A DNA stretch of 64,000 nt from Clostridia bacterium (GTDB taxonomy: Bacteria; Bacillota; Clostridia; JAAYHZ01), in assembly GCA_050950825.1 (NCBI GenBank), contig JBMNIH010000007.1:243263-307262 (forward strand), read 5' to 3'. Shown here piece by piece: positions 5,965 through 56,918 of this stretch. The notes beneath the pieces are model-generated. The model made no database searches. It had not been told where the DNA came from and saw only the letters and a list, made by a program, of their open reading frames with translations. Each line of letters opens with the position of its first letter. The first letter of the stretch is position 1. Made by a program: the position numbers and the translations under genes.

Positions 5965-5989
5965 CGAGCTTGCGGCAAGCTTATTTAAC

Positions 5990-6011
5990 AAGAGGCGGAA
6001 AAGCCTCTTTT
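5990..6011 (+). terminator. Intrinsic terminator after fprA
   Basis: AGAGGC-ggaaaa-GCCTCT followed by T run. Confidence 0.5.
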
Positions 6012-6181
6012 CTTGTGGATTTTTGGCGAATCGAGGCCAAGTTTTTCGGTTTCCTCGGTTCCTCCGGTCCTTTGCTTGAAAGGGAAGCTTTCGGTGTGAT
6101 AGAATACTTAATAATAATAAGGAACAACAAAGCAAAGAACCTAAATAGGTGCATTTTGATACGGCACGGTAGGGGGTACAT

Positions 6182-8969: not shown

Positions 8970-9003
8970 GTATTGCCTTTGGAAAGCGGGGGATTCATCG
9001 TAA

Positions 9004-10821
9004 ATGTTTGACATACGGGAAGAACTGAAAACATTGCCTGAATTGCCGGGCGTTTATTTGATGAAAAACGCTTCCGGAAAAATCATATATATCGGAAAAG
9101 CCCGCGTACTTAAAAACAGAGTGAAGCAGTATTTCACGGGAACCCATGATCCGAAAACCTCCGCTTTGGTGGACAGGATCAAGTCCTTTGAATATATCGT
9201 AACCGATAACGAAGTAGAGGCATTGATTTTGGAATCCACGTTGATAAAAAAGCACATGCCCTACTACAACATACTGCTGAAAGACGACAAGTCCTTTCCG
9301 TATCTTCGCGTAGACACGGAAGCCTATTTCCCTACCGTTACCATTGTTCGGAGACCGGCGGAGGACGGTGCCAAATATTTCGGCCCTTTTCACATCAGCG
9401 CCACCAATTTGAATCGTACGCTGAACATTTTGAAAAAAGCTTTTCCCATAAGGTCGTGCAATAAACAGTTGGACGGTAAAGATATTCTTCGACCTTGCTT
9501 GAATTACCACATTAAAAAGTGTGCCGGAGCCTGTGCAGGATATATATCCCGGGAAGAGTACTTGGCTTACGTCAAACATATCATCGATTTTTTTTCAGGA
9601 AAACACGAGGACATTGTAAAATCTCTTGAAAAAGAAATGCTGGAAGCTTCGGATGATCTGGATTTTGAGAAAGCGGCGGATTTAAGAGATAAAATCGGAT
9701 TGATAAAGTCGGTAACGGAAAGGCAAAAAATCGTATCCGTGGGCGGCGAAGACGAAGACTATATCGCCATTTATTCGGAGTACGATCTTTGCTGTATCGC
9801 CGTCTTTTACGTTCGAGACGGCAAGGTATCGGACAAAAGGGAGTTTATCCAAAAAAACATATTGGGAGAGCCTATAGAGACGGTGCTCGACTCCTTTATG
9901 AAGCAATACTATACTTCCGAAACCTTGGTTCCGAAAACCATTGTTGTCAATGTAGAGCCCCCCGATTCGGAGCTGATTCAAAAATGGCTTTCGGAAATGA
10001 CGGGAAGGTCCGTAACGATCAAAGTACCCCAAAGAGGAAAGAAAAAAGAGATGATCGATATGGTCCTTCAAAATGCGCAGATCCATTTGAAGAATACTTG
10101 CTTAAGGCAGAGTAATGCGAGAATGATCGCCGAAGAAGGCTTACACGGCTTGAAGGAGCTTTTGGACCTTGAAGATATACCGGTTCGAATCGAGGCCTAT
10201 GATGTATCCAATTTCGGCTCCTCCCATATTGTTGCGGGAAGAATCGTATACATCAACGGAAAAAAGGAGCCTTCCCAATACCGCAGGTACAAAATCCGAG
10301 GAACCGATTCCCAAGACGACTACCTTTCCATGTCCGAAGTCCTTCGAAGAAGGTTCAAGGGCGGAAAGGATTCCGAGGATATGCCGGATTTGATTTTAAT
10401 CGATGGCGGAAAAGGCCATGTAGCTGCCGTATCCAAGGTCTTGCGGGAATGCGGTTTGTCTCATTTAAAGATTGCCGGTATGGTAAAGGACGACAAGCAT
10501 AAAACCGCAGGGCTTATCACCCCGGAGGGACCTGTGGATATGAGCGGTCATATGCCGGTGTTAAGGTTTTTGTCCGGTATACAAGAGGAGACCCACCGAT
10601 ACGCCATTGCCTACAGCCGCTTGCTGACCGAAAAAGCCATGCGGGAGTCGGCTTTAGACGATATACCGGGGATAGGACCGACACGGAAAAAAGCGCTTTT
10701 AAAGGCGTTCCAATCGGTAGATAAGATTAAGAAAGCAAGCACGGAAGAGCTTAAGAAAGTAAAAGGAATCACGGAACAAGTAGCGGAAAACATTTATCAT
10801 TATTTCAATGAAGACGAGTAG
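9004..10821 (+). CDS. uvrC: Excinuclease ABC subunit C
   Basis: GIY-YIG PGVYLM..IYIGKA, UVR domain, RIEAYDVSN, PDLILIDGG, C-terminal HhH. Confidence 0.97.
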   Translation: MFDIREELKTLPELPGVYLMKNASGKIIYIGKARVLKNRVKQYFTGTHDPKTSALVDRIKSFEYIVTDNEVEALILESTLIKKHMPYYNILLKDDKSFPYLRVDTEAYFPTVTIVRRPAEDGAKYFGPFHISATNLNRTLNILKKAFPIRSCNKQLDGKDILRPCLNYHIKKCAGACAGYISREEYLAYVKHIIDFFSGKHEDIVKSLEKEMLEASDDLDFEKAADLRDKIGLIKSVTERQKIVSVGGEDEDYIAIYSEYDLCCIAVFYVRDGKVSDKREFIQKNILGEPIETVLDSFMKQYYTSETLVPKTIVVNVEPPDSELIQKWLSEMTGRSVTIKVPQRGKKKEMIDMVLQNAQIHLKNTCLRQSNARMIAEEGLHGLKELLDLEDIPVRIEAYDVSNFGSSHIVAGRIVYINGKKEPSQYRRYKIRGTDSQDDYLSMSEVLRRRFKGGKDSEDMPDLILIDGGKGHVAAVSKVLRECGLSHLKIAGMVKDDKHKTAGLITPEGPVDMSGHMPVLRFLSGIQEETHRYAIAYSRLLTEKAMRESALDDIPGIGPTRKKALLKAFQSVDKIKKASTEELKKVKGITEQVAENIYHYFNEDE

Positions 10822-10832
10822 ACGGTGAGAGC

Positions 10833-11534
10833 ATGAGTATTTTCGCAATTTCGGACCTGCATTTATCCTTAGGAGCGGACAAGCCTATGGATATTTTTGG
10901 TCCTACATGGGAAGGATATACGGAGAAGATAAAGGAGAATTGGGAAGCCCGAATCACGGACAGCGATACGGTCTTGATTCCGGGCGACATTTCTTGGGCT
11001 ATGCGCATACAAGAAGCGGAAAAAGACTTTGTGTTTCTCGACCGTTTACCGGGACGTAAGATCGTTTCCAAGGGCAACCACGATTATTGGTGGAACAGCA
11101 TGAAGAAAATCAAGGAGGCTTTTGATTCCTGGGGGGTTACCACCATCGATATACTCCACAACAATTATTACGAGGCGGAAGGCTACGTAATATGCGGAAC
11201 GAGAGGATGGAGGCACCCCGATAGCCCGGATGCCACGGAGCAGGATCGAAAGGTCTACGAAAGGGAATTGCACCGTTTGACCTTATCGTTGGAATCGGCA
11301 AAGCCGACAAACAAGCCGATCCTGTGCGGCTTGCATTATCCGCCCTTTGGACCCTCCGGAGAGGATTCGGAATTTACCGAGCTTTTGGAAAAATACGGGG
11401 TAAAGATATGCATATACGGACATATCCACTACAATTTTGACGTGACGGGAATTGTTCGGGGGATGTATAACGGGATTCATTACCGGCTGGTATCGGCGGA
11501 TTATTTGCAGTTCAAACCCTCTTTGGTGATATAG
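10833..11534 (+). CDS. Metallophosphoesterase
   Basis: SDLH, GDISW, GNHD, HYPP, GHIH calcineurin-like motifs. Confidence 0.9.
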   Translation: MSIFAISDLHLSLGADKPMDIFGPTWEGYTEKIKENWEARITDSDTVLIPGDISWAMRIQEAEKDFVFLDRLPGRKIVSKGNHDYWWNSMKKIKEAFDSWGVTTIDILHNNYYEAEGYVICGTRGWRHPDSPDATEQDRKVYERELHRLTLSLESAKPTNKPILCGLHYPPFGPSGEDSEFTELLEKYGVKICIYGHIHYNFDVTGIVRGMYNGIHYRLVSADYLQFKPSLVI

Positions 11535-11660: not shown

Positions 11661-13076
11661 ATGAGCGTTAAGCTGGAAAAACCGGAAAAAAACGTAGTGG
11701 TACTTGAAATAGAAGTGGACAAAGAAGTATTTAAAGATGCTTTAAGAAAATCTTACAATAAGAACAAACATAGATTTAACGTACCCGGGTTCCGAAAAGG
11801 AAAGGCTCCTATGGAAGCCATTAAGCGCCTGTACGGTGAAGGCGTATTTTACGAAGATGCGTTGGATATTGTAATCCCGGATGCATATGAAAAAGCGGTA
11901 AAGGAAACCAACATCGAGCCGGTAGAATCACCGAAAATTAATTTTGACGAAATTCCGGAAGACGGAAACTTTATCTTTACGGCCCGCGTAACCGTGAAGC
12001 CGGAAGTTCATATAACCCAATACAAGGGTGTGGATGCTGAAAAAGTCGTATACAAGGTGGAAGACAAGGACATCGAAAGAGAATTGGACCGCGTTGTTAA
12101 GCGCTGTGCAAGAAAGGTTACGGTGGAAGGCCGTCCCGTACAAGATCAGGATACGGTGGATATTGACTACGAAGGATTTATCGACGGTGTTGCCTTCGAA
12201 GGCGGAAAAGCGGAAGGCTACAGCTTGGTAATCGGATCGAAAACCTTCATTCCGGGCTTTGAAGATCAAATCATCGGCAAAAATGCAGGTGACGAGTTCG
12301 AAGTGAACGTAAAATTCCCGGAAGATTATCATAACAAAGACGTTGCCGGAAAAGATGCGGTATTTAAAGTGAAGCTGAACTCCATTTCCACGCTTGAATA
12401 TCCCGAGGTAGACGACGAGTTCGCAAAAGATGTCAGCGAATTTGACACCTTGGAAGAATACAAAGCGGACATTCGAAAGAATTTGGAAAAACAAGCGGAA
12501 GCACGCACAAAATCGGAAGTCGAGAATAATGTAATTGAGGCGGTATTAAAAAATACCGAGATTGACGTTCCCGAAGTGATGGTTGAAAATGCCGTCGACA
12601 ATTACGTAGAGGACTACGAAAGAAACATCCAACAGCAATATCCGGGAACGGGATTAAACTTGGAAAAAATCCTATCCTTCCAAGGCATGACCCTTGCCGA
12701 CTTTCGAAATCATCAAAAAGAGCATGCGTTGAGAGAAATTAAAGTAAACTTGATGCTGGAAAAAATCGTAGAGCTTGAGAATATAACGGTTGGTGACGAT
12801 AAAGTAGAAGAAGAGCTGAAAAAATATGCGGAACAGTACAAAATCGAATTGGAAAAGCTTAAGGAAAACATGAGACCGGAAAACATCGAATATATCCGCA
12901 ACCAGCTGAAGATGCCTGCAGCCGTAGAGCTCCTCGTAAATTCCGCGAATCTTACGGTTGTAGAAAAACCGTTCTATGAAGAACATCATCATGACCATGA
13001 CCACGACCACTGCGACGACGATACCTGCGACTGCGGTCATGACCATGACGAAGAACACGAAGAAGGAAAAGAATAA
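11661..13076 (+). CDS. tig: Trigger factor with His/Asp/Cys-rich C-terminal tail
   Basis: PGFRKGKAP signature, FKBP domain FIPGFEDQIIG, DDEFAKDVSEFDTL; upstream of clpP. Confidence 0.97.
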   Translation: MSVKLEKPEKNVVVLEIEVDKEVFKDALRKSYNKNKHRFNVPGFRKGKAPMEAIKRLYGEGVFYEDALDIVIPDAYEKAVKETNIEPVESPKINFDEIPEDGNFIFTARVTVKPEVHITQYKGVDAEKVVYKVEDKDIERELDRVVKRCARKVTVEGRPVQDQDTVDIDYEGFIDGVAFEGGKAEGYSLVIGSKTFIPGFEDQIIGKNAGDEFEVNVKFPEDYHNKDVAGKDAVFKVKLNSISTLEYPEVDDEFAKDVSEFDTLEEYKADIRKNLEKQAEARTKSEVENNVIEAVLKNTEIDVPEVMVENAVDNYVEDYERNIQQQYPGTGLNLEKILSFQGMTLADFRNHQKEHALREIKVNLMLEKIVELENITVGDDKVEEELKKYAEQYKIELEKLKENMRPENIEYIRNQLKMPAAVELLVNSANLTVVEKPFYEEHHHDHDHDHCDDDTCDCGHDHDEEHEEGKE

Positions 13077-42452: not shown

Positions 42453-43673
42453 TTATTTGCATAAAAAGTCCATTGCCTGCTGTTCGCCATATTCTATAGC
42501 AATTTCCACTGCACGTTTGGCTTTTTCAAGCAGTGTTTTTGCTTCACGCCTCGCTGCGTGAGATTGCTGAACTAACGCTGAGATTTCTTTTTCCCTATCT
42601 GCCAATAGGCGTGGTATCCATGTCTTTTGCACTTGTGATGGTTTCCAATGTTTTATAATTGAACCACCAACACTTTGTTCAATTTGTAATTGAACAAATA
42701 TAGAGTTAAGTACGAGCTCAAGGTAGTATGGTGGTATATCTTCAATAAGTGAAAGCCGCAAAATTCCACTTGCAATAATCCCTTGTACAGATTCATCTAA
42801 AAAGTATGCAATCCCAGGCGTAGCGTCTTTTGATAGAAGTATTTCTCCTTGTTGAGGCTCATACTTTTCTCGTAAAACATTGTAGAGTTCTTTACTTATG
42901 AAGTTAACTGTGTCATCAACTATTCCATGTTTACTAAGATTGCTCACACGCAAAAAGAGAATACCCGATTCTGTATAAGCTGAGCTCCCGACTTCAATCC
43001 CTTTAGTATAAAGTGTAATCTTGCCAAGCAGCTGAAGGTAAACATTTGAAGGTAGTCTATCAAACATTTCCTTATACTTCGGTTGAAAAGCAATATATTC
43101 TTGTATATTGGTTAATAACGGTACTTTTATCAGGCCAATTTGCCATAAAAACACATGCTGTTGAATACTTCCTACAGGAAGGCGTTGAGTTTGGAATCTA
43201 CCATATTTTGAATTAAGAAATGTAGAGAGTAAGTAAGGATTAATAATGTCAGCAACTGTTATTTTCGCCAAATCTTGGCTTGAGTTAATAGGGTATTTCC
43301 ATTTATCGCTAGCAACGCAGGAGTTTCCAACCGAACCTGACATAGCTAATAAGACATTTCGTGGTTTAATCTCTGATTTCCAAAGTAGTTTATGAGCGTC
43401 TTTAGTTATTCTTACTACATTTGAAAAATCTGCATATCCTTCTTTTATGTCAATTGCACGTAGAAAGGGTATGCCTTTTTCTTGATATGTAACTTGATTC
43501 ATTAGAGAATAAGCACCAAAACTCTTAATTGACTTTACGAGTTTCTTTAGAGGTAACGGATTTGATGCTAGTAATATTTCTTCAAGTTTAGCATATTCTG
43601 GACGATAGTATTCAGCATCAATTCGAGTACCGCATTCCAATTCTTTTTTTGAAACAATTGATATTACAGCCAT
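42453..43673 (-). CDS. Restriction-modification specificity (HsdS-like) subunit with shortened central spacer
   Basis: RIDAEYY, two TRD-like halves (GIPFLRAIDI; GILFLRVSNL), C-terminal helix LLEKAKRAVEIAIE. Confidence 0.85.
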   Translation of the reverse strand: MAVISIVSKKELECGTRIDAEYYRPEYAKLEEILLASNPLPLKKLVKSIKSFGAYSLMNQVTYQEKGIPFLRAIDIKEGYADFSNVVRITKDAHKLLWKSEIKPRNVLLAMSGSVGNSCVASDKWKYPINSSQDLAKITVADIINPYLLSTFLNSKYGRFQTQRLPVGSIQQHVFLWQIGLIKVPLLTNIQEYIAFQPKYKEMFDRLPSNVYLQLLGKITLYTKGIEVGSSAYTESGILFLRVSNLSKHGIVDDTVNFISKELYNVLREKYEPQQGEILLSKDATPGIAYFLDESVQGIIASGILRLSLIEDIPPYYLELVLNSIFVQLQIEQSVGGSIIKHWKPSQVQKTWIPRLLADREKEISALVQQSHAARREAKTLLEKAKRAVEIAIEYGEQQAMDFLCK

Positions 43674-43675
43674 TT

Positions 43676-46060
43676 TTACTCCTCCGTCCAAAAATCAAAT
43701 CCCTGTTCTTTTGCAAAAGCAATAAAAGCCTCTGCAATTTCATCAAGGTCGTGGTCAACGATTAGGTGACCATGTTCATCCAGCATCAATTCGCCGTTTC
43801 CATCTTTCTTGTAAATCGGTTCACCGCTGTTGTCTTTACCACCATTTTCAGATACTGCAAAGAAAATCGGATAATCAAGTTCTTCTGCGGCTCTATCTGA
43901 TAACCATGTCTCCCTATATCGAGAAAGCAATTTTTCATCATCAAGTAGATACTTAATCTGTCCTTTAATAGAGCGTGATGCCAGTTTACGTTCAGCCTCT
44001 GCCAATGTCCTTTTGAGTGCAGCTTTTCCTTTTGCTCGTCCTGGCATTGCGGCAAGTTGCGCTTTAAGATTTTCAATGCGCTCTTGAAGTTCATCGTCGC
44101 TTTCGGTCTGTGTTTCTTCGTTTTTGATTTCATCTCCATTATTTTCTAATTCGACGGTATCGTCTTCTTCAAATTCAGCTTGCAGGAACGACATCAAAAG
44201 CGGTGGTAAGTCGTCTTCGGTCAGTTCCTCTCTTTCGCTCAAGGTTCTAATTTCGGCATAATGATTATCCCATTCAGCTATATGCCGATTCTGCACTTCT
44301 CGTATATTGGCTAATTCTTCATCAGTATATTTTTGCAGAAAAACAACGCTGGTTTTTGTACCGGTATGCGGCTTAAAAGTATTAGGATGTAAGCCAACGA
44401 CGGCCAAGATACGAGCTTTACTGAAAAGAAAGTTACGGATAAATAAGTCGTTCGTATTATTGAGACGGCCTTGCGGCAGTACAATTGCCATTCTGCCTCC
44501 GGGCTTTAGAAAATTAAGGTTGCGTTCAATAAATAGAATATCTCGCCCTATTTTAGAGACCGTCTTACCATTCTTTTCTGCAAGTCGGTATTGACGCAAA
44601 ATTTCACGCTCGCTTATGCTACCCGCAAACGGTGGATTGGTCATCAGTATATCAAAATCAAAGTATTGAAAGTTGCGTTGGTTAGCTTCGTCTTGCTCGT
44701 AGTTACTAAATCGGGTTAACAGCGGACGAAAAGCTGCTTTGCCTTCTTCACTCCATTTGGGCGGATTTAGGCTGTTAAGTTCATACACATTTGACTTGCC
44801 ATCGCCTGCAATTAAGTTAAGTGCTTTGGCAATTTTAACGGCTTTAGGACTTGAGTCAATGGCATAGACCATTGAACCTGCATATTCGCTGATAGCAGGA
44901 GGGAATCCATTAACAGTATATTGTTCGCCAGCAATCCAAAAGATGGTATGAACGGTAAAACCTGAAGAACCACAAGCAGTGTCAATTACCCGTTCGTGGA
45001 TTTTAGGATTAAGCATTTTTACGCACATATCAATTACCCAACGTGGGGTAAAATACTGCCCTTTTTTACCTTTAGCAACTTCTGTAATTAGATATTCAAA
45101 GGCTTCATCAATTACTTGAAGGTTAGCATTAAACAGTTTGACATCCTGCAAGAATGAAACACAAGTAAGCAAATGTTCAGGCTTTAGGCGGATTTTTTCA
45201 TCTTGTCCAAATATACCACGCCATTTATCCTTTGCTCTATTAAATAAACCATTTATTTTATCATAGAGTTCTCGCGGTGATTCGCCATAGATGCGAAAAT
45301 GTATCTTATGGTTTCGTGTACGGTCATTTGCCGCTGCCCATTCGTCGTATAATTTTGCATAAATCAGCTTAAAGACTTCATCAAAGGAGTCATCAATTCC
45401 CTCAGCATTAGCCAAAACAAGGTCTTCAAGATCGAGTATGATTTTTTTAAGAGAAAGACGTTCTTTCACTAAACGGTTTTCTTGTTTGAGTTTGTCTATC
45501 GTCCATTGCTCAGTGATGACATCTTGAAGCGTTTGATCTACTGTGGGTATTGATGAAATTTGCGAAAAAATGTTTGGCTCTTCTCGATGAAGGATAACCA
45601 ATTCTTCACCGTTCGACCATACGCCTATGGGTGAGCCTTCAGCATTACAGTATGACTTTAGTTGTTGAAGCCCATCTTTACGTTTGGGCTTTTTAACTTC
45701 AAAGATTATGTATGGGTGTTCACCATCGGTTTGCATAACAACAATATCTGCGCTTTTGTCACTAACGCCTGAGCCAAACCAAACCGCATATTCAACTTTT
45801 ATGCGCTCTTTTGGATAATGATACTCTTCCAGCAATTTTTTTATCCAAAGCTGACGAACGATTTCTTCCGGTTTAGCAGGACGATCTTTATCGCTGGCAA
45901 GGCATTTTAGATAAGGCTTGCCGTTTTTTTCAAATAACTGTGTTTCAAGCCATTTGATATATTCGGTTTTAAATAATGTTAATCTGTGTTTCGTTTCTTC
46001 ACTCTTAAAAATTTCATCAATTCTAAACAAAAAAATCACTCCATTTAGTAAAATAGACAT
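43676..46060 (-). CDS. HsdR_N-type nuclease domain fused to N6-adenine DNA methyltransferase
   Basis: PEEIVRQ..ADIVV..IFEVKK nuclease motif; GQYFTPR, DTACGSSGF, MTNPPF. Confidence 0.9.
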   Translation of the reverse strand: MSILLNGVIFLFRIDEIFKSEETKHRLTLFKTEYIKWLETQLFEKNGKPYLKCLASDKDRPAKPEEIVRQLWIKKLLEEYHYPKERIKVEYAVWFGSGVSDKSADIVVMQTDGEHPYIIFEVKKPKRKDGLQQLKSYCNAEGSPIGVWSNGEELVILHREEPNIFSQISSIPTVDQTLQDVITEQWTIDKLKQENRLVKERLSLKKIILDLEDLVLANAEGIDDSFDEVFKLIYAKLYDEWAAANDRTRNHKIHFRIYGESPRELYDKINGLFNRAKDKWRGIFGQDEKIRLKPEHLLTCVSFLQDVKLFNANLQVIDEAFEYLITEVAKGKKGQYFTPRWVIDMCVKMLNPKIHERVIDTACGSSGFTVHTIFWIAGEQYTVNGFPPAISEYAGSMVYAIDSSPKAVKIAKALNLIAGDGKSNVYELNSLNPPKWSEEGKAAFRPLLTRFSNYEQDEANQRNFQYFDFDILMTNPPFAGSISEREILRQYRLAEKNGKTVSKIGRDILFIERNLNFLKPGGRMAIVLPQGRLNNTNDLFIRNFLFSKARILAVVGLHPNTFKPHTGTKTSVVFLQKYTDEELANIREVQNRHIAEWDNHYAEIRTLSEREELTEDDLPPLLMSFLQAEFEEDDTVELENNGDEIKNEETQTESDDELQERIENLKAQLAAMPGRAKGKAALKRTLAEAERKLASRSIKGQIKYLLDDEKLLSRYRETWLSDRAAEELDYPIFFAVSENGGKDNSGEPIYKKDGNGELMLDEHGHLIVDHDLDEIAEAFIAFAKEQGFDFWTEE

Positions 46061-46101: not shown

Positions 46102-46308
46102 TTAGTCATCATCAATAATTTCCATAATATCGGAAATATCACACTTTAATGCCTTGCAAATCTTCACAAGCACATCGGTCGTAACATTTTCGTTTTTACC
46201 CAGTTTTGCCATAGAAGATGTACTAATACCAGCCGCTTCTCTTAAATCTTTCTTTTTCATATCTTTATCAATTAAGAGTTTCCATAGTTTTTTATAGCTT
46301 ACGGCCAT
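46102..46308 (-). CDS. Small XRE-family HTH regulator
   Basis: SYKKLWKLLIDKDMKKKDL...KICKALKCDISDIME. Confidence 0.9.
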   Translation of the reverse strand: MAVSYKKLWKLLIDKDMKKKDLREAAGISTSSMAKLGKNENVTTDVLVKICKALKCDISDIMEIIDDD

Positions 46309-46469
46309 AATTGTCACCTCGCTCGCTATAAAGAATATCATAAAGTAAGCTGAAACACAATAAAAATTTGAGCCCGCAAATTAATTATTGTGTTTTGCGA
46401 AATTCATGCTATAATTTACATAAGGAAATATCTGGTCTGTATGATGAAATGTTATTATGGAGGTACGGT

Positions 46470-48381
46470 ATGGCAAGCGTCAGCTCGTTCAGAGATGTTA
46501 TTGCAAACATGTATTACAATGAACTCTTTGACGAGTTGTCCGAGTATATTGAGGACAACCCGGATAAGCTGGAATCCAACTCATACCGTGTGCAATCACC
46601 GGATGAAGCGGCTTTATCCGATTTTGACATTATAACGATTGACATAACCGACTCGCCAGGTAACAGTATTTTATTTGACGTAATTGTTTCTGCCGAAGTT
46701 GAAATTGCAGAAACAGTACGAAGGAATCGCGAGACTGATGGTATAGAACAATGGTTCCGTATCTCCTGCAGAGCTGACCTTGATGACGGAATTCAGAATT
46801 TTCAAATCAACTCTGTTTCAATATACAACAAGTACAGAGAAAGCAAATTAGGCCGACTGTCTGAGTATTTAGTGCCAATTATAGAAAAGGAACAGTTTGA
46901 CGATGTTGCTACCGAGTTTCTAAGTGAATTTTGCCCGGAAGCATTAAGTACTCCTATGCCTATTCCGGTAGATGAAGTAGTGAAAAGAATGGGGCTTAAG
47001 GTTAAGGAAATCCAGTTAACAAAGCATTTCACTATATTCGGTCAAATAGTTTTTGGAGATTGTACGATAGAATATTACGACAGAAATGAAAGAGCATATA
47101 AGCCTTTGGAAGTTTCAAGAGGAACAATTCTCGTGGATCCTAATGTGTATTTCATGCGAAACGTAGGGTGCATGAACAATACCATTATTCATGAGTGTGT
47201 TCACTGGTATAAGCATAGAAAATACCATGAGTTAGTTAAGACATATAACAGCGATGCTTTACTCATAAGCTGCAGGGTAAACGAAACAACTAAATACAAA
47301 AAGCAATGGACGCCAGAAGACTGGATGGAATGGCATGCTAACGGAATCGCACCTCGCATCCTTATGCCTAAATCAATGACCATTAAAAAGATTGAGGAGC
47401 TAATTAAAAAGAATGAGCTCCTTTTTGGTAATCACGACAGGTTAAATATAATGGAAAATGTCGTGTATGAATTAGCTGACTTCTTCCAGGTGTCAAGGAT
47501 AGCAGCCAAAATAAGGATGCTTGACCTCGGATATAAGGAAGTTGAAGGTGTATATACCTACGTAGATGACCATTTTATCAGCAATTATACATTTAAGGCA
47601 GACTCATTACATAAAAACCAAACATATAGTATTAGCCTAAGCGATTCATTTTTTGAATACTATGCAAATCCTGAATTTGCCAAGATTATAGACAGCGGTA
47701 ATTTTATTTATGTTGACGGTCATTACGTTATTAACGACTCTAAATACATAAAAAGGTTAGAAAATGGAAGCCTTGATCTTACAGACTATGCAAAACTGCA
47801 TGTAGATGAATGCTGTCTTCTGTTTGATTTAAAGCTAAATAAGGCCTCCAAAATGGACATTGTAGTATACCTCGATTCTATAATGTTCCGTAAAGCTACA
47901 CCGGATTATAACAGAGTGCCGACATTTAATCCGGACAAGCATAATATGGAAGTATTTAATCGTTCAGAAGAGCTAAAGAAGTTTCACGAAGAATTCGTCG
48001 AAGAAGGTCAGCATTTGAGCCGTACAACCCAGACATTTTCCCAAGCGGTATACGGACATATCAAAAGGAAAGGCTACAATAAGGTTGTTTTTATAGAAAA
48101 GACTTTGCTTTCAGGAAAAACATATGACAGAATAAAAAATAATGAACTTAACAATCCAACTTTAGAAACCGTTGTTGCAATCTGCATCGGATTGGAGCTT
48201 AGCCCTACATACAATATTAAGGCTTGCCGGATATACTCTCAATAACACTCCACAGCAATTGGCGTATAAAAAGCTTATCCATTCGTATAGAGGGCATTCA
48301 ATATATGAATGCAATGAAGTTTTGGAAGCCTTGGGACTTTCCCCTCTTTGTGCAAAGGCATATAAAGAAATGATAAGTTAA
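46470..48381 (+). pseudogene. ImmA/IrrE-family metallopeptidase with C-terminal HTH, frameshifted near 48210
   Basis: IIHECVHW (HEXXH), EWHAN..RILMP; HTH PTLETVVAICIGLEL continues in another frame as ILRLAGYTL to the stop at 48381. Confidence 0.8.
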
Positions 48382-48833: not shown

Positions 48834-49827
48834 GGGGGGTGCGGACGAAAACCTGGACTTAAAATAAGAGTCCGGAGGAGGTACTCCCATGTATTCATAT
48901 GAAGACAGAATGAAAGCAGTGGAGTTATACATAAAGTATGACTTAAGTGCTGCTGCTACCATTAGAGAACTTGGGTATCCAAATCGCAAAATGCTAGCTC
49001 GATGGTATAAAGAGTATAAAGAAACAGGCGATTTACACAAACACTATAACAAAAAGGCAAAATATACACCAGAACAGAAGAAGGCTGCTGTCGATTATTA
49101 TCTGGAGCATGGACGCAATATTTCCCGTACGGTGAAGATATTAGGATATCCTCATCGGGATGAACTTGCAAAGTGGATAGATGAATTAGCGCCCGGCAAA
49201 AGAAAAGCTCGCATAAAACACCGGGCAATGGTACAATTTTCCCAGGAGCAGAAAAAAGATGCAGTTATTGAACTGTGTGCAAGGGACGGATCTGCTGCTG
49301 CCGTTGCTGGCAGGATAGGTACCAGCAGGGGCGTACTATATAAATGGAAGAATGAACTGCTCGGTAAGGAGAACACTAAGACTATGAAAAGTTCTAAAAA
49401 ACGATCGCTTTCTGATGACAAGGAGACGCTTTTAACTGAAGTTGAGTCGCTTAAAAAAGAGATATATCGCAAACAAATGGAACTGGATATTCTAAAAAAG
49501 GCGGCAGAAATCGTAAAAAAAGACCTGGGCATCGATCAGCGGAACCTGACAAACAGAGAAAAAGCAATACTGATCGATGCCCTCAGGACTAAATATCCAC
49601 TGAATGATCTGCTTGAGATGACTGGATTGTCAAAAAGCAGTTATTATTATCAAAAAACCCAGAAACAACCTGATAAATATGCCAGCTTGAGAACAGAGGT
49701 AACAGAGATTTTTTATGATAACCAACGCCGCTATGGATACAGGCGGGTACATGCAACAATAAAGGGTAAAGGGACAACAGTTTCAGAAAAGGTTATACGA
49801 AGGATAATGAAAGAAGAACAGCTTATT
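48833..49827 (+). mobile_element. IS3-family element, 3'-truncated (no DDE domain, no right end)
   Basis: TG start at the SNF2 breakpoint; ORF from 48889 with repeated HTHs, SKSSYYY, RYGYRRV..VSEKVIRRIM; stops at the IS91-like element. Confidence 0.85.
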
Positions 49828-49959
49828 GTACCAAACCGCTGCGCGGTAGCTCAACAGTATTTACCCTTTTCGGGTCCTAACCTTTATATTTAATTCCTAT
49901 CACCTTCAAAATCGTATATAATAGCTCCCATTAATTTGATTTTGAAAGGTGGTATTGTT

Positions 49960-50835
49960 ATGTCAACAAATTTATCCGTCGATTTTGATCAAGCGCTCCA
50001 CAATGTTAAGTTTGTTCTTGAGACCTGCCGTTATTCTCAAAGAACAATCTATCTTTATGAGCGACAAATTATTAAGTTTTATCAAACGGTTCAGAAACAT
50101 CCCTGTCAAATCTCTCAGCAAGATGTACTTTTGTATTTGCACGGTCTTGTTAAGCGATCCTTGAGTGCGGATTACATCAACCAAGTCAGAGCAGCCATAC
50201 GTCTTTTCTTCCGTGTAGGATTGCAAAAAACTTTTGATGAGTCTTTACTTCCTCGTGTTCGTAAGGAAACTGTACTGCCTGCCGTATTGTCGCAAAATGA
50301 AATCAAACGAATATTTTCCTACATAAGAAACCCTCGATACAGAGTCATTCTATACCTTTGTTATTCTGCAGGTCTTCGTCTCGGAGAAGCCTTGAATCTA
50401 AAAATCAAAGATATTGACAGTGAGAATATGCAGATCGCCGTTCGAAAAAGTAAAAACAACAAAGATCGCTATACGATACTGTCTCCGGAGTATTTGACGC
50501 TTCTTCGAGATTATTGGAGGCTTTACAGACCTGAAGGTCCTTATCTTTTCCCGGGTGCCTCTTCCGGTAAGCCTATGGCAGCGCAGGGAATCCAAAAGGC
50601 GTTTCATGATGCCGTAATAAAAGCCGGAATCCGCAAAAATGCGTGCATTCATTCTTTACGCCATAGCTTTGCGACACACCTTTACGAATCCGGACAAGAT
50701 ATCGAAGTCATACAATCCCTACTCGGTCATGCAAGCATTTGGACCACCAAACGTTACACGCACTTGGCACGGAAGCATCTTCAAGGGGTGAAGAGTCCGG
50801 CTGACGGTTTCGGAGGTGATTTTAATGTCCTCTAA
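49960..50835 (+). CDS. Tyrosine recombinase with N-terminal SAM-like domain, copy 1
   Basis: LPAVLS, YSAGLRLGE, HSLRHSFATH, LLGH, TTKRY; GAAAGGTGG RBS. Confidence 0.95.
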   Translation: MSTNLSVDFDQALHNVKFVLETCRYSQRTIYLYERQIIKFYQTVQKHPCQISQQDVLLYLHGLVKRSLSADYINQVRAAIRLFFRVGLQKTFDESLLPRVRKETVLPAVLSQNEIKRIFSYIRNPRYRVILYLCYSAGLRLGEALNLKIKDIDSENMQIAVRKSKNNKDRYTILSPEYLTLLRDYWRLYRPEGPYLFPGASSGKPMAAQGIQKAFHDAVIKAGIRKNACIHSLRHSFATHLYESGQDIEVIQSLLGHASIWTTKRYTHLARKHLQGVKSPADGFGGDFNVL

Positions 50836-51982
50836 AATTCAAAAGATCTTTCAGTCCTTTAAAGAGAGATTGCCGTCCCAAAGCTATTCTCCCCAAAAAA
50901 CAAAAGTCATTGACGCAATCTGTAAGTGCCGCACTCCCGAAATGGGAGGATTCGTCCAACGATGTGACGATTGCGGTTACACCGAGGCACATTTCAATTC
51001 CTGCCGAAATCGACATTGTCCCGTTTGTCAAGGGTCCAACCAAAGAAAATGGGTTGAAAAGCAAGTCGCCAACACGCTCCCGATACCCTATTTCCACGTG
51101 GTTTTCACCGTGCCTGCCGAACTCAATCCCTTGTTTCTTGCAAACCCCGACAATATGTTCAATCTGCTCTTTCGTGCCGCTAGTCAAACCGTTTTGACTC
51201 TCTCGGAGAACGAAAAATTTCTCGGGGCGCAACCCGGCTTTATCGCCGTCTTACATACATGGGGGCGAAACATTCAGTTCCATCCCCATTTGCATTGTAT
51301 CGTAACGGGCGGCGGATTGTCCAGCGATCGCAAACGATTCGTTGTTTCCAAAGATTCCTTTTTCCTTCCTCTTAAAGCGATCAGCATCGTTTTCCGGGGA
51401 AAGTTCCTCGAGGAATTGAAAACATTCTTTGTTAATAACACCCTTCAATTGACGGAAGGTTTGGATACCGTTCAAAAAAGGCAACAATTTCTGGACTTAC
51501 TGTACTCCAAGGATTGGGTATGCTATTGCAAGAAACCGTTTAAAGACGCTTCCGCCGTTATACGGTATCTCGGCCGATATACTCACAAAGTGGCGATCTC
51601 GGACAGCCGAATCGTTTCTCATAATCCCGACACGCAGACGGTGCGTTTCCACTGGAAAGATTACAAAGATCACAACAAAATCAAGATCATGCAGCTTTCC
51701 GAAGACGAGTTCGTACGCCGTTTTCTCCTCCATGTGTTGCCCAAAGGATTCATGAAAATTCGACATTACGGATTGCTTGCCAACCGAGGAAGAGAAGAGC
51801 GTTTGGAATTATGCAGAGATTTGCTGAAGGCAACCGCACCCACGGGAGTTATTCAAGAATTCCCCAAGTGCAAAGTTGAACCTCTTGACCGCTGTCCGAA
51901 ATGCGGAAGCCAATCTTTTCTTTTGGTTCCTCGCTCTTTGTACGCGCAGCCGGCTTTATTGCCTACCGGTACCGGACCGTAG
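50825..51982 (+). CDS. IS91-family HUH/Y2 transposase, copy 1
   Basis: NSCRNRHCPVCQ zinc domain, YFHVVFTVP, HTWG..HPHLHCIV, YLGRY, RRFLLHVLPKGF..IRHYG. Confidence 0.95.
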   Translation: MSSKIQKIFQSFKERLPSQSYSPQKTKVIDAICKCRTPEMGGFVQRCDDCGYTEAHFNSCRNRHCPVCQGSNQRKWVEKQVANTLPIPYFHVVFTVPAELNPLFLANPDNMFNLLFRAASQTVLTLSENEKFLGAQPGFIAVLHTWGRNIQFHPHLHCIVTGGGLSSDRKRFVVSKDSFFLPLKAISIVFRGKFLEELKTFFVNNTLQLTEGLDTVQKRQQFLDLLYSKDWVCYCKKPFKDASAVIRYLGRYTHKVAISDSRIVSHNPDTQTVRFHWKDYKDHNKIKIMQLSEDEFVRRFLLHVLPKGFMKIRHYGLLANRGREERLELCRDLLKATAPTGVIQEFPKCKVEPLDRCPKCGSQSFLLVPRSLYAQPALLPTGTGP

Positions 51983-52175
51983 ATTCTTGACAACTGAATA
52001 TCGTGTAAAACGACCCTTTATGGGAGGGCGTAGCTTGCTCTTTTTCAGGCGATTTTCCGCTTTTTCTTCGATTTTCAAGGTGCGAAGTACCGTTTTAACG
52101 TACTTTTAAGCCTAAAATGTTCGAATCAAACCGATGTTGACCTTTTAAAATTCCCATGGGAAAATGAGAACCTAC

Positions 52176-52312
52176 GCGGTTTGGTACAATATGCGTTTAT
52201 CAATTCTCTTGTCCGAATATATTTTAGTTTACAACACCCGCCACATTCACATTGTGGTGGTTTCTTTTTGTGTTGCGAATTGATAAAACGCATAATCATT
52301 GTACCAAACCGC
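52176..52312. other. Long attC-like inverted repeat spanning the tandem junction
   Basis: 15/15 outer arms 52176-52190 / 52298-52312; second stem 52191-52206 / 52277-52293; inner stem-loop 52232-52275. Confidence 0.85.
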
Positions 52313-52432
52313 TGCGCGGTAGCTCAACAGTATTTACCCTTTTCGGGTCCTAACCTTTATATTTAATTCCTATCACCTTCAAAATCGTATATAATAGCTC
52401 CCATTAATTTGATTTTGAAAGGTGGTATTGTT

Positions 52433-53308
52433 ATGTCAACAAATTTATCCGTCGATTTTGATCAAGCGCTCCACAATGTTAAGTTTGTTCTTGAGACCTG
52501 CCGTTATTCTCAAAGAACAATCTATCTTTATGAGCGACAAATTATTAAGTTTTATCAAACGGTTCAGAAACATCCCTGTCAAATCTCTCAGCAAGATGTA
52601 CTTTTGTATTTGCACGGTCTTGTTAAGCGATCCTTGAGTGCGGATTACATCAACCAAGTCAGAGCAGCCATACGTCTTTTCTTCCGTGTAGGATTGCAAA
52701 AAACTTTTGATGAGTCTTTACTTCCTCGTGTTCGTAAGGAAACTGTACTGCCTGCCGTATTGTCGCAAAATGAAATCAAACGAATATTTTCCTACATAAG
52801 AAACCCTCGATACAGAGTCATTCTATACCTTTGTTATTCTGCAGGTCTTCGTCTCGGAGAAGCCTTGAATCTAAAAATCAAAGATATTGACAGTGAGAAT
52901 ATGCAGATCGCCGTTCGAAAAAGTAAAAACAACAAAGATCGCTATACGATACTGTCTCCGGAGTGTTTGACGCTTCTTCGAGATTATTGGAGGCTTTACA
53001 GACCTGAAGGTCCTTATCTTTTCCCGGGTGCCTCTTCCGGTAAGCCTATGGCAGCGCAGGGAATCCAAAAGGCGTTTCATGATGCCGTAATAAAAGCCGG
53101 AATCCGCAAAAATGCGTGCATTCATTCTTTACGCCATAGCTTTGCGACACACCTTTACGAATCCGGACAAGATATCGAAGTCATACAATCCCTACTCGGT
53201 CATGCAAGCATTTGGACCACCAAACGTTACACGCACTTGGCACGGAAGCATCTTCAAGGGGTGAAGAGTCCGGCTGACGGTTTCGGAGGTGATTTTAATG
53301 TCCTCTAA
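52433..53308 (+). CDS. Tyrosine recombinase, copy 2
   Basis: Same protein as copy 1 except SPECL versus SPEYL. Confidence 0.95.
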   Translation: MSTNLSVDFDQALHNVKFVLETCRYSQRTIYLYERQIIKFYQTVQKHPCQISQQDVLLYLHGLVKRSLSADYINQVRAAIRLFFRVGLQKTFDESLLPRVRKETVLPAVLSQNEIKRIFSYIRNPRYRVILYLCYSAGLRLGEALNLKIKDIDSENMQIAVRKSKNNKDRYTILSPECLTLLRDYWRLYRPEGPYLFPGASSGKPMAAQGIQKAFHDAVIKAGIRKNACIHSLRHSFATHLYESGQDIEVIQSLLGHASIWTTKRYTHLARKHLQGVKSPADGFGGDFNVL

Positions 53309-54455
53309 AATTCAAAAGATCTTTCAGTCCTTTAAAGAGAGATTGCCGTCCCAAAGCTATTCTCCCCAAAAAACAAAAGTCATTGACGCAATCTGTAAGT
53401 GCCGCACTCCCGAAATGGGAGGATTCGTCCAACGATGTGACGATTGCGGTTACACCGAGGCACATTTCAATTCCTGCCGAAATCGACATTGTCCCGTTTG
53501 TCAAGGGTCCAACCAAAGAAAATGGGTTGAAAAGCAAGTCGCCAACACGCTCCCGATACCCTATTTCCACGTGGTTTTCACCGTGCCTGCCGAACTCAAT
53601 CCCTTGTTTCTTGCAAACCCCGACAATATGTTCAATCTGCTCTTTCGTGCCGCTAGTCAAACCGTTTTGACTCTCTCGGAGAACGAAAAATTTCTCGGGG
53701 CGCAACCCGGCTTTATCGCCGTCTTACATACATGGGGGCGAAACATTCAGTTCCATCCCCATTTGCATTGTATCGTAACGGGCGGCGGATTGTCCAGCGA
53801 TCGCAAACGATTCGTTGTTTCCAAAGATTCCTTTTTCCTTCCTCTTAAAGCGATCAGCATCGTTTTCCGGGGAAAGTTCCTCGAGGAATTGAAAACATTC
53901 TTTGTTAATAACACCCTTCAATTGACGGAAGGTTTGGATACCGTTCAAAAAAGGCAACAATTTCTGGACTTACTGTACTCCAAGGATTGGGTATGCTATT
54001 GCAAGAAACCGTTTAAAGACGCTTCCGCCGTTATACGGTATCTCGGCCGATATACTCACAAAGTGGCGATCTCGGACAGCCGAATCGTTTCTCATAATCC
54101 CGACACGCAGACGGTGCGTTTCCACTGGAAAGATTACAAAGATCACAACAAAATCAAGATCATGCAGCTTTCCGAAGACGAGTTCGTACGCCGTTTTCTC
54201 CTCCATGTGTTGCCCAAAGGATTCATGAAAATTCGACATTACGGATTGCTTGCCAACCGAGGAAGAGAAGAGCGTTTGGAATTATGCAGAGATTTGCTGA
54301 AGGCAACCGCACCCACGGGAGTTATTCAAGAATTCCCCAAGTGCAAAGTTGAACCTCTTGACCGCTGTCCGAAATGCGGAAGCCAATCTTTTCTTTTGGT
54401 TCCTCGCTCTTTGTACGCGCAGCCGGCTTTATTGCCTACCGGTACCGGACCGTAG
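53298..54455 (+). CDS. IS91-family HUH/Y2 transposase, copy 2
   Basis: Same translation as copy 1. Confidence 0.95.
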   Translation: MSSKIQKIFQSFKERLPSQSYSPQKTKVIDAICKCRTPEMGGFVQRCDDCGYTEAHFNSCRNRHCPVCQGSNQRKWVEKQVANTLPIPYFHVVFTVPAELNPLFLANPDNMFNLLFRAASQTVLTLSENEKFLGAQPGFIAVLHTWGRNIQFHPHLHCIVTGGGLSSDRKRFVVSKDSFFLPLKAISIVFRGKFLEELKTFFVNNTLQLTEGLDTVQKRQQFLDLLYSKDWVCYCKKPFKDASAVIRYLGRYTHKVAISDSRIVSHNPDTQTVRFHWKDYKDHNKIKIMQLSEDEFVRRFLLHVLPKGFMKIRHYGLLANRGREERLELCRDLLKATAPTGVIQEFPKCKVEPLDRCPKCGSQSFLLVPRSLYAQPALLPTGTGP

Positions 54456-54812
54456 ATTCTTGACAACTGAATATCGTGTAAAACGACCCTTTATGGGAGG
54501 GCGTAGCTTGCTCTTTTTCAGGCGATTTTCCGCTTTTTCTTCGATTTTCAAGGTGCGAAGTACCGTTTTAACGTACTTTTAAGCCTAAAATGTTCGAATC
54601 AAACCGATGTTGACCTTTTAAAATTCCCATGGGAAAATGAGAACCTACGCGGTTTGGTACAATATGCGTTTATCAATTCTCTTGTCCGAATATATTTTAG
54701 TTTACAACACCCGCCACATTCACATTGTGGTGGTTTCTTTTTGTGTTGCGAATTGATAAAACGCATAATCATTATATCAAATATAATGATAAGATATTTT
54801 TTGTTAAGTATA

Positions 54813-54847
54813 CTTTACATACATATGCAATTTGGTATAATTTTATA
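54813..54847 (+). repeat. 35-bp target-site duplication of IS1634, left copy
   Basis: CTTTACATACATATGCAATTTGGTATAATTTTATA, identical at 56884-56918. Confidence 0.92.
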
Positions 54848-56883
54848 CTTGACTTTAACAGTTACGGAATATAAAAAACCTTTGTAATCCTTGAGAAATG
54901 CGGCTTACAAAGGTTCTTTTGATTTCAGAAGATTGTTGTACATTTTTCTTAGTTATCTTTTAGTGTCGGCAATAAGTTGACGTATTGCTCCGGGTTTTAG
55001 AAAACGTTGATTAAGTACAAGATTCAAGGCATTACCGATATCCTTTAGAAGGGGATCATAATAAGCTACTCGGTATACGTTATCCTTAACTAAACAAGCC
55101 TGATATTTTCTCAAAGACTTAATTATCTGTTCGGGAGCGTACTCCTTATTCAAACGCTTTGCCAAGAGTCTTAAAATCAGCAATGCAATGAAGCACGTAA
55201 GAAAATGTCCTTCTATCCTTTGTTTCAATGTAACATAAACGGGACGGGTTTCAAGATCGCTTTTGGTAATTCGAAAACTATGTTCAATTTCCCAAAGCTC
55301 ATGATATCTCTTGGCGACTTCGTGATCCGGCATATTGATTTCGCTTGTAATAATTACATAATAACCGTCGTACTTTTCGTCTTCCATGATTTTTTCCGTA
55401 TCCAAATAAGGAATACGTTTCGTATTGATGCATTCGCCGGTTTCGGAATCGTATTCGATATTTTTAATATAACGCAATGCGCTTTGAGCATCTTGTTTTG
55501 TATAGCGTTTGGGATTCGCTATGATTTTTTGGGCCTTTTCAATCAGTTCGGCCCGCTTATGCTTCCGGCGTCCGGCATATAGTTCGTTGTAACATACAAT
55601 CTGTTTAACATCTATTGGAATCGGGCGTTTCTTGCCGTCCGCATGGGTAACCCGAAATTCCTGCGGATACGGTCTGGATTTTAAGCGGAAAACGGGTTCT
55701 CGTTTTTCCGTTTTTTCATCCCACAGATCCGCCGACTTTACCACTCCTTTTTTCTCCACATAACCCGAAGGGTCAAATACAAAAGACTGTAGTTCCTTAT
55801 TGGCTCCTCGTATTTTTTGCGAGAAGATGAAACCGTCTTTTTCAGCCGTTAAAAATGCCACGTTATCACCGCAATTTAACGCTTTATCCGCAACAACGAT
55901 AATTCTTCCCAATCCGTATTCTTCCCGTACCTTCTCAATAATTGGCATCATTGTTTGACTGTCATGGGTATTTCCTTCGAAGAGACGATATGTAATGGGA
56001 ATCGCATCCGAATCCAGCAATAAACCCATTTGTACCAAAGGGTTACCGGTATTATCTTTGCAATAACCTTTCTTACGAAACTTGTCTTCTTCGTCAATCT
56101 CAAAATAGTAATTGGTAACGTCATAAAAAGTTATGTCGGTCTTGCGATTGTAATGGATTCTTACCTGCTCATGGAGATGAAGAAGAAGGTCTTCTCGAAA
56201 ATCGGAAAAGTAATCCAATGCCCGATATACGTCATACCAATCGCAATTGAAAGGTCTTGCTATTCTTTCTTTCTCTTGAAAACTCGCTATTTTTGATCCC
56301 GGTGCGAGTATGCGTGTGTAGACCAAAAGTTGCATGACATCGTTTAGGGAATAGTCCATAGACTTACTGTGCTGACGGTTAATCAAGAATTGATCAATTT
56401 TGAGTTCATGATAAATTCGGCTTAAAGGCAGAAATCCCAAATGGTACATGGCATCTTCGTTCTCATCCATTACTTCATTTGTACTTACATACCCTAAATA
56501 GACATCTTCTTCGGCTTCTTGCTTTTTCTTCTCCAAAGTACGTAAACGTGCTACTTCTTTAAAGTGAGCAATCGGATCTTCAAAACGATCCAAATATTCG
56601 TCAACGTAACCTAAATTTTCGATTACATTATGCTTTACTTTCTTTGTTTTCGGATCTCTATAACCTTCGACAAAACTCAAATTTATACGACCGTTTTTTT
56701 GCGGAGTAACTTTCAGGTACATGACCGTCCTCCAAAGATCTATATTCTTAACTGATTATATCATAATACACAACAATAGTCAACAATATTAAGAAAATAA
56801 TTTGACATAAAAAAAGCGATCTAACAGCGTCATATCAATGGTTTTCATAATCTTTTTAGGACTAGTTAACTGTTAAACTCGCG
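54848..56883 (-). mobile_element. IS1634-family element (2,036 bp)
   Basis: Imperfect IRs CTTGACTTTAACAGTTA / TAACTGTTAAACTCGCG, long direct repeat, one transposase. Confidence 0.9.
54953..56722 (-). CDS. IS1634-family DDE transposase
   Basis: FYDVTNYYFE, GYCKD, FEGNTHD, VVADKA, YHELWEIEHSFRITKS, RPVY, GHFLTCFIAL. Confidence 0.93.
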   Translation of the reverse strand: MYLKVTPQKNGRINLSFVEGYRDPKTKKVKHNVIENLGYVDEYLDRFEDPIAHFKEVARLRTLEKKKQEAEEDVYLGYVSTNEVMDENEDAMYHLGFLPLSRIYHELKIDQFLINRQHSKSMDYSLNDVMQLLVYTRILAPGSKIASFQEKERIARPFNCDWYDVYRALDYFSDFREDLLLHLHEQVRIHYNRKTDITFYDVTNYYFEIDEEDKFRKKGYCKDNTGNPLVQMGLLLDSDAIPITYRLFEGNTHDSQTMMPIIEKVREEYGLGRIIVVADKALNCGDNVAFLTAEKDGFIFSQKIRGANKELQSFVFDPSGYVEKKGVVKSADLWDEKTEKREPVFRLKSRPYPQEFRVTHADGKKRPIPIDVKQIVCYNELYAGRRKHKRAELIEKAQKIIANPKRYTKQDAQSALRYIKNIEYDSETGECINTKRIPYLDTEKIMEDEKYDGYYVIITSEINMPDHEVAKRYHELWEIEHSFRITKSDLETRPVYVTLKQRIEGHFLTCFIALLILRLLAKRLNKEYAPEQIIKSLRKYQACLVKDNVYRVAYYDPLLKDIGNALNLVLNQRFLKPGAIRQLIADTKR

Positions 56884-56918
56884 CTTTACATACATATGCA
56901 ATTTGGTATAATTTTATA
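56884..56918 (+). repeat. 35-bp target-site duplication, right copy; contains the promoter for the next gene
   Basis: TTTACA-N16-TATAAT with TG extension. Confidence 0.9.

Follow-up and report, generated by a model that had tools for sequence, protein, structure and literature searches.

How does a mobile element that encodes both a tyrosine recombinase and an IS91-family Y2 HUH transposase choose the sites at which it inserts, and which of its two enzymes integrates it? The question is raised by a 64,000-nucleotide stretch (the window) of a Clostridia bacterium genome (assembly GCA_050950825.1, contig JBMNIH010000007.1), in which two copies of such an element stand head to tail (Table 1). 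An earlier note on this DNA had suggested that the foot of a hairpin inside the element pairs with the target, loosely as in IS200/IS605 elements, and that this would bias insertion to the -10 boxes of sigma-A promoters. The comparison presented here points to another partner for that hairpin foot, namely the element's own left end, and to another kind of target, a degenerate palindrome with a short spacer. Judging from these sequences, the Y2 protein probably makes a single-stranded circle whose folded junction is then integrated by the recombinase, in a reaction like that of CTXphi or of integron cassettes but self-encoded.

The internal arm and the folded junction

The two ends of the element are dissimilar, without terminal inverted repeats or a long target duplication, and have a common core of only 3-5 nt; in the window the shared core is exactly ATT, since the tandem repeat extends 0 nt to the left and 3 nt to the right. 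Downstream of the transposase gene lies the internal arm. The earlier note had this arm pairing with the DNA at the right flank, and the flank does resemble the left end, but the arm's partner is the left end itself, to which it is complementary at 15/15 positions, as against a match at only 9/15 with the flank. Because the arm is directly followed by a sequence that forms a stem of 16 bp with the right end, the end-to-end junction is predicted to fold into a 140-nt hairpin (-36 kcal/mol, z -9.7/-8.7, 0/200 shuffles on either strand). At the right flank, the arm has no partner in the predicted fold, and the flank pairs within itself (-21 kcal/mol). A folded single-stranded site built from two inverted sites is thus present in the model and is backed by covariation, and the left end box is a putative binding arm for the recombinase. 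The Rfam search gave 0 matches. Inside the loop of the large stem there is also a terminator-like hairpin with a T run (52238-52270 and 54711-54743), which would halt the transposase transcript ahead of the right end.

The recombinase consists of an N-terminal SAM-like and a phage-integrase domain (Pfam PF00589, PF13495). Among NCBIfam models it scores highest against XerA (206 bits) and integron integrase (188 bits), neither of which reaches the cut-off, and its match to TIGR02249 is split into two stretches and also below cut-off. Its matches in the PDB are XerA and IntI4, and the alignments to them have the R-K-H-R-H-Y catalytic motifs intact. The transposase matches Pfam PF04986 and PF14319, is about 27% identical to the TnpA of IS91/IS1294, and holds the HPHLH and YLGRY motifs in the alignment (A1) that was used to search for relatives.

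Scanning GTDB with alignment A1 yielded 79 loci, from the best 80 of at least 615 matches, and these span Bacillota, Proteobacteria, Bacteroidota, Acidobacteria and others. Relatives of the element are very common, with at least 8000 scored candidates and 8000/8000 passing E 1e-30. The recombinase lies directly upstream of the transposase in 77/79 GTDB loci, a motif search finds the catalytic motifs intact in 58/63 recombinases and 60/63 transposases, and the pairwise identities of the two proteins correlate (Spearman 0.77 versus a permutation maximum of 0.25). Close relatives at the protein level (P0002-P0015) are 59-78% identical. Among the GTDB matches listed, locus L001 is the only close relative found, with a transposase 75% identical to that of the window. 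The sole difference between the copies in the window (50492 / 52965) gives the recombinase a Tyr in copy 1 and a Cys in copy 2, and L001 has the Cys. In plasmids, DNA-level relatives amount to one weak 110-bp match, and the phage collection gave 5 protein matches, among them L107, which is a linear fragment and not a circle.

The pairing of arm and left end is conserved through this family. With the TTG of the left end numbered +1 to +3, the left-end motif was detected in 49 of the 55 GTDB copies that have enough flank, its downstream inverse in 44 and both in 43; motif scoring misses at least one arm, that of L047, which is gapped. Over 14 nt in 44 elements the arm and the left end agree at 87% of positions, with at least three types of pair at +4 and +7. 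Agreement at +4 is 0.90 versus 0.43 when permuted (A/A 28, G/G 5, T/T 4, C/C 3, mismatched 4), and at +10 the pairs are G/G 19, A/A 18, C/C 1 and mismatched 6. A canonical IS91 tandem junction, without recombinase, has no arm in the one example examined (best match 8 bp; Table 1), nor was an arm found at an IS1294-type locus (L109, score 17) whose ends were fixed without certainty. Locus L052 was rejected as a recombinase-free control, being a deleted, truncated copy that still has the left-end motif.

In 71/77 family rows the junction strand of the fold exceeds the arm strand by 3-6 nt. This asymmetry bears on the alternative that the recombinase works only on double strands, joining junction and target or inverting the segment that arm and junction enclose; the fold would then arise incidentally from a site duplicated in inverted orientation. 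The arm region read in reverse does look like an ordinary box-spacer-box site, with a spacer of 5-7 nt. The junction spacer, however, with its extra 3-6 nt, is too long for a normal core, and the inverted 105-bp segment was not seen in the inspected loci, where no systematic search was made. We therefore give very little credence to recombination on double strands alone.

Table 1. Positions of the element, its parts and its immediate neighbours in the window, with the IS91 control junction.
Feature	Position	Strand	Remarks
Tandem pair, head to tail	49825-54770		2473-bp unit x2; one base difference, at 50492
Element copy 1	49825..52297	+	tyrosine recombinase and Y2 transposase; true boundary inside the shared ATT core
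Element copy 2	52298..54770	+	head to tail with copy 1
End-to-end (circle-type) junction	52297/52298		between copies 1 and 2
Left (ter-like) end box	49825..49839	+	family motif N-TTGNACNRARCCGC; small hairpin 49836-49847 follows
Outward promoter-like sequence, TTGAGC-18-TG-n-TACAAT	49825..49854	-	candidate; again at the tandem junction, 52327-52298
Tyrosine recombinase gene	49936..50835	+	probable start 49960; second copy 52409-53308
IS91-family Y2 HUH transposase gene, with zinc-binding domain	50816..51982	+	second copy 53289-54455; overlaps the recombinase open reading frame (ORF)
Internal arm	52176..52190	+	reverse complement of left-end nt 1-15, no mismatch; second copy 54649-54663
Right-end stem-loop	52191..52293	+	52191-52206 pairs with 52278-52293 (16-bp stem)
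4-nt bulge of the folded junction	52294..52297	+	at the right (ori-like) end
Right flank, right half of the target site	54771..54787	+	itself a 7-bp hairpin
Truncated IS3-family transposase ORF	48889..49824	+	left neighbour; cut at residue 312 of about 510
Head-to-tail IS91 dimer	L108:655-945		beside sul3, E. coli plasmid; control junction

Target sites across the family

Where copies allowed a comparison, as in 12 Rhizobiales and 12 Clostridium plasmid copies, the ends could be placed directly; elsewhere they were set by hand. A right-end register was assigned to the window and to 52 of the 83 GTDB transposase copies that have a stop codon; the others had no detected arm, ran off the contig end or were ambiguous. 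The plasmid sets omit L093 (same flanks as L091), L080 and L106. The window row, which joins two unrelated flanks, enters the counts of right-end identity and covariation and is excluded from the palindrome test.

Were the arm an IS200/IS605-like guide, right flanks should resemble it. The 9/11 identity that the earlier note saw between the right flank (54771-54781) and the left end (49825-49835) is confirmed, and it is unusual, since only 26/3058 ATT sites (0.85%) in the host DNA of the window reach 9/11. The flanks of the window and of L001, which resembles it, match the arm at 6/8 positions, but they are the only ones to do so, and covariation between arm and right flank is absent family-wide. 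Across 53 junctions, right flanks match their own arms at +3 to +10 no better than chance (115 matches versus 108.4 ± 8.8 in an own-flank null and 110.5 ± 6.0 in a permutation null, with per-position values equal to the permuted ones). Flank identity is confined to -3 to +2, and the right flank is at background against the left end from +3. Where arm and right end are discordant (tallies that omit L001 and L030 by a length filter, both being in the 53-junction set), the target follows the right end at -1 in 4/4 cases; at -2 it follows arm and right end 5:4 of 14, and at -3 9:5 of 19. The arm base at -3 is carried by 11/12 Rhizobiales targets, and Clostridium targets match the arm in 0/11 cases at both -2 and -3; the trend at -3 is weak and inconsistent, and may reflect a minor contact of the arm there. 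Guide pairing is not supported, because the arm is not matched beyond chance at +3 to +10 and the base at -1 follows the right end.

The rebuilt empty sites carry information on both sides of the cut instead. They have an A-rich block at -10 to -7, with A at -8 in 27/42 (p 7e-8), and the spacing AA-N6/7-TT occurs in 19/41 rebuilt targets versus 13% of control TT sites. The two 9-nt halves are most palindromic at a spacer of 6 (3.83 versus 2.34 in controls and 3.08 when permuted; 0/2000 permutations, p<0.0005). The score is still 2.76 versus 2.03 without the AA/TT pair, a spacer of 7 is marginal (p 0.046), and some palindromes reach 10/11. Next to the cut, the target equals the right end at -1, -2 and -3 in 0.95, 0.64 and 0.50 of 42 cases (0.29, 0.25 and 0.23 when permuted), falling to background from -4. 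The right halves of the targets covary marginally with the element's stem box (p 0.043; 0.10 after a redundancy filter).

Targets differ between lineages. In Clostridium estertheticum plasmids, the copies all lie at the border of the spacer in a single conserved palindrome, with AA-N6/7-TT in 10/11. This palindrome, with arms of about 13 bp and a 6-7 bp spacer, is repeated in these plasmids (L081-L083, L097-L106) between small genes (MerR, SdpI, MFS and others), where it may serve an undescribed cassette system as its site of recombination; L105 (983 bp) and L106 derive by deletion from insertions at a single site. The Rhizobiales copies (L084-L096, L017) are all in a GATTC motif, GGATTC in 11/12, and often at the left end of IS5/IS630-type elements. 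We take this motif to be a GANTC site, the methylation motif of CcrM. At the window's own left junction, the last IS3 bases form the left half of another target, with AA-N7-TT spacing. Among targets with a G-TT core, a purine comes next in 13/15, and 5 agree with GTTRRRY, which is the core consensus of attC sites, and no convincing attC folds were seen. Two other loci have repeats around their elements. In L003, two element copies (4884-7424 and 8887-11427) are inserted in members of a 170-bp repeat, near a lone XerA/integron-like recombinase (12247-13032), and the region could be a cassette array. In L046, a tRNA-like end is duplicated over 36 bp in inverted orientation, with one copy on each side of the element (4693-4753 and 7502-7537).

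Several results weigh against a palindromic target recognised by the recombinase. The rows are related and not independent (a crude redundancy filter gives 17/34 versus 3.9); the AA-N6/7-TT excess is missing in the Rhizobiales plasmid copies (2/12); 22/41 GTDB targets lack this spacing, and many are weak palindromes. No covariation links the left halves of the targets to the stem box of the element itself (191 versus 194, p 0.70), and targets with a G-TT-purine core are not demonstrable as attC sites. The value of 0.95 at -1 is partly circular, because the register of the 53 rows was set by hand with the left flank visible. The AA signal of the left flank is not circular, as it was read from an automatic motif register, and the palindrome score peaks at the chosen register.

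The main rival is insertion by the Y2 protein alone at hairpin targets. In an IS91-type rolling circle, the arm would capture the displaced left end, making termination and circle closure precise, and the Y2 protein would insert the circle at the edge of target hairpins with a 6-nt loop, leaving the recombinase only to resolve multimers or to regulate. The transposase is a full member of NF033538 (423 bits, cut-off 125), and IS91 TnpA alone inserts bottom-strand single-stranded circles (PMC13181058; here and below, sources are cited for their accessible parts). The right-end consensus CCTA at -8 to -5 resembles the IS91 ori end, and aligning the two places the Y2 nick between +1 and +2; the three mismatches at +1 agree, since left end and arm differ at +1 in 3/44 elements and at +2 in none. 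That nick lies one base off the recombinase cut expected at -1/+1, which, like the mismatches, counts against integration by the recombinase, although a two-enzyme cycle would allow both positions. On the other side, IS91 selects a tetranucleotide on one side of the cut (PMC13181058), whereas the present targets are informative on either side of it, have a fixed 6-bp spacer and, on the far side, share identity with the right end; and the arm and the recombinase co-occur here and are both absent in IS91 (one junction examined). We consider insertion by the Y2 protein alone a serious but rather unlikely alternative to integration of the folded junction by the recombinase.

Promoter-like targets and the neighbourhood in the window

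The likeness to promoters from which the earlier note set out is real at this locus. The reverse-strand motifs do fit TGnTAYAAT, the minus strand of the right flank being TG-A-TATAAT, and a perfect TGnTATAAT occurs at 13/3058 ATT sites (0.4%) in the host DNA of the window; this flank has no -35 box at 16-18 nt. The minus-strand TTGAGC-18-TACAAT at the left end (49854-49825), with its TG and with its last AAT taken from the shared ATT core, is likewise exactly as described. On its own this match is weak, because it has only 9/12 consensus matches and is one of 32 hits versus 17.5 ± 4.6 in shuffles, and here it would read antisense into the IS3 gene.

L001 provides an independent case. The minus strand of its right flank is TGGTATAAT, again a perfect TGnTATAAT (chance about 0.4-1%), and its left end has the same TTGAGC-18-TACAAT, facing a 408-aa MscS/ParB-domain gene that starts 118 bp away and is directed away from the element, with a weaker second promoter-like match between them. 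A third case comes from the IS3 gene into which the window element is inserted. Homologues with 83-92% identity read E-E-Q-L-I-I-P-Y at the insertion point, which implies a left target of ATT-ATH-CCN-TAY, or more broadly ATT-[AG]TN-CCN-TAY; this fits the same consensus but in coding DNA, and its right half is back-inferred from protein because no IS3 DNA relative covers the insertion point. From these two DNA cases and one inferred case, the window lineage appears to prefer ATTATAYCA, a -10 box read backwards.

Family-wide, TG followed by at least 5/6 of TATAAT is found at 4/53 junctions (window, L001, L045 and L076) versus 0.18 expected from flanking DNA, and at 2/51 without the window and L001 (p 0.011); in the plasmid copies there is none (0/12 Rhizobiales, 0/12 Clostridium). 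Most left ends of the family are TTGAAC and form no -10 box. Targets that look like -10 boxes are thus seen at the window and L001 but at only 4/53 junctions overall, and the idea that the left end rebuilds a promoter finds a possible instance in L001, where the promoter-like end faces a gene, but not in the usual end of the family. On this sequence evidence, promoter targeting is not the rule of the family, and promoter overlap is real for the window lineage only. The likeness to a -10 box would result from a target arm starting with TTAT, from the preceding A demanded by the right end of this lineage, and from a lineage-specific CA at +7/+8.

The excess of extended -10 targets, the compatible left site implied by the IS3 homologues, the close matches of the window and L001 flanks to the arm and the 9:5 preference for the arm base at -3 are what can be said for an arm that guides the element to melted sigma-A -10 boxes and rebuilds a promoter there. 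Besides the missing covariation, the 4/4 discordant cases at -1, the Clostridium targets and the unpaired arm of the predicted fold, it has to contend with L045, whose -10-like target is a 10/11 palindrome with a 6-bp spacer, and with the window's left target being coding DNA. We find guiding by the arm improbable.

The left flank is IS3 coding sequence, as the earlier note said. The full-length homologues have 510 aa and continue I-[IV]-P-Y past the insertion point; the remainder of the truncated ORF was not found in the window, and for that reason the two flanks belong to two different target sites. Later deletion, recombination between copies, or assembly could account for the unmatched flanks. 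No further copies of the element were found in the window beyond the tandem pair. Upstream of the IS3 remnant, minus-strand ORFs (42453-46060 and 46102-48245) resemble restriction-modification genes by eye, with an HTH and IrrE/M78-like pair (weak Pfam match), and this neighbourhood suggests a mobile island. To the right of the element there is intergenic DNA and then an IS1634-family element (54848-56883) bordered by a 35-bp direct repeat (54813-54847 and 56884-56918). The repeat duplicates a strong promoter-like TTTACA-16-TG-TATAAT (11/12 matches) and has a 10/11 match to the arm, in opposite orientation and 60 bp from the right end of the two-enzyme element; its right copy sits before a CAAX protease gene.

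The proposed cycle, its precedents and its meaning

The cycle that we propose would begin as in IS91. The Y2 HUH protein would nick the right end and displace one strand by rolling-circle synthesis, and this strand would be closed to a single-stranded circle once the left end is reached; tandem copies would come from re-insertion or from read-through. Only in the circle or at a tandem junction does the arm meet the left end, and there, as the sequence and its conserved predicted fold suggest, it would form the long hairpin, in which two boxes are paired and the spacer between them is short on the strand of the arm but longer and bulged on that of the junction. The recombinase would treat this fold as an attachment site and recombine it with a chromosomal pseudo-palindrome of the form arm-6 or 7 bp-arm. 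Target statistics suggest that one pair of strands is exchanged at the border of the spacer and the TT, with 1-3 nt of identity needed beside the cut, and replication would resolve the product. The arms of the target would be recognised by protein and would vary by lineage. In the window lineage insertions can hit promoters, because the preferred half-site with its overlap base, ATTATAYCA, reads as an extended -10 box on the opposite strand, and the left end would happen to supply a replacement.

Parts of this cycle have precedents. IS91 goes through a single-stranded circle and inserts its bottom strand, and the family (IS91, IS801, IS1294) shares with the present element the Y2 HUH transposase, dissimilar ori and ter ends without inverted repeats or long target duplication, a right-end flank resembling the left end, tandem end-to-end junctions and an overlapping upstream ORF (PMC13181058). 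In IS91, however, that ORF is Orf121 and not a tyrosine recombinase, no arm spans the junction, and the target is a one-sided tetranucleotide resembling the ter cleavage site instead of a two-sided palindrome. With Xer/dif the element has in common inverted arms around a 6-bp spacer, with the cut at its edge and homology beside the cut (PMC4246890); the spacer is found family-wide (p<0.0005) but unseen in the Rhizobiales set, and the cut is placed to within one base.

The attP(+) site of CTXphi is a fold of about 150 nt formed by a pair of inverted sites that lie about 90 nt from each other and differ in their central region, which is long in one (12 bp) and short in the other (5-7 bp), and CTXphi is also similar in its rolling-circle single strand, in a specificity set by cut-adjacent bases and in its tandem copies (PMC4246890). 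It borrows the host XerC/XerD at a single site, dif, whereas the present element has its own recombinase and many degenerate sites, carries no virion genes, and has a folded site that is split by the crossover between its two ends. Integron cassettes likewise use a folded single-strand site with two boxes and the closest recombinase family (PMC4792948), but the recombinase here lacks the IntI insertion, the element is autonomous and carries an HUH protein, no cassette array lies in the window region, and the targets are not demonstrated attC sites. IS200/IS605 elements combine an HUH enzyme, a single-stranded intermediate and a hairpin-foot sequence complementary to an end. All three are shared, although the present protein is Y2 and theirs Y1, and the present arm pairs over 15 nt with its own end and does not covary with the target.

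The pair of recombinase and Y2 genes is already known; elements of this kind are presumably listed among the IS91-like elements of ISfinder, under names such as ISWz1 and ISCARN110. The recombinases of IS91 transposons have been described as an integron-like subgroup, the closest homologues of IntI but without its insertion (10.1101/542381). The folded junction and the palindromic targets appear to be new, as no description of either, or of the recombinase's role, was found in the literature searched, which left out most subscription journals, ISfinder and TnCentral.

Such elements are very common, and the role of the recombinase in them appears unexplained; the anatomy of ends and targets is a direct and cheap way to ask which enzyme integrates. 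CTXphi has been presented as the only reaction resembling cassette recombination, and as an incomplete one since it encodes no integrase (PMC4792948). Because the present element encodes the closest homologue of IntI together with an attachment-like fold, the origin of integrons becomes a testable question. Tentatively, and with slightly less than even confidence, we suggest that this cross-phylum group annotated as IS91 consists of autonomous single-stranded DNA integrative elements, joining an HUH-made circle to an IntI-related recombinase without the integron insertion, and that it is the missing, self-encoded, CTXphi-like precursor of integrons, with the specificity of the window lineage having drifted onto extended -10 boxes while its end restores a promoter. 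With their lineage-specific palindromic targets, these elements also offer a natural collection of compact single-strand integrases. If promoter replacement is real, it would account for the fact that insertions of one lineage upstream of genes do not silence them.

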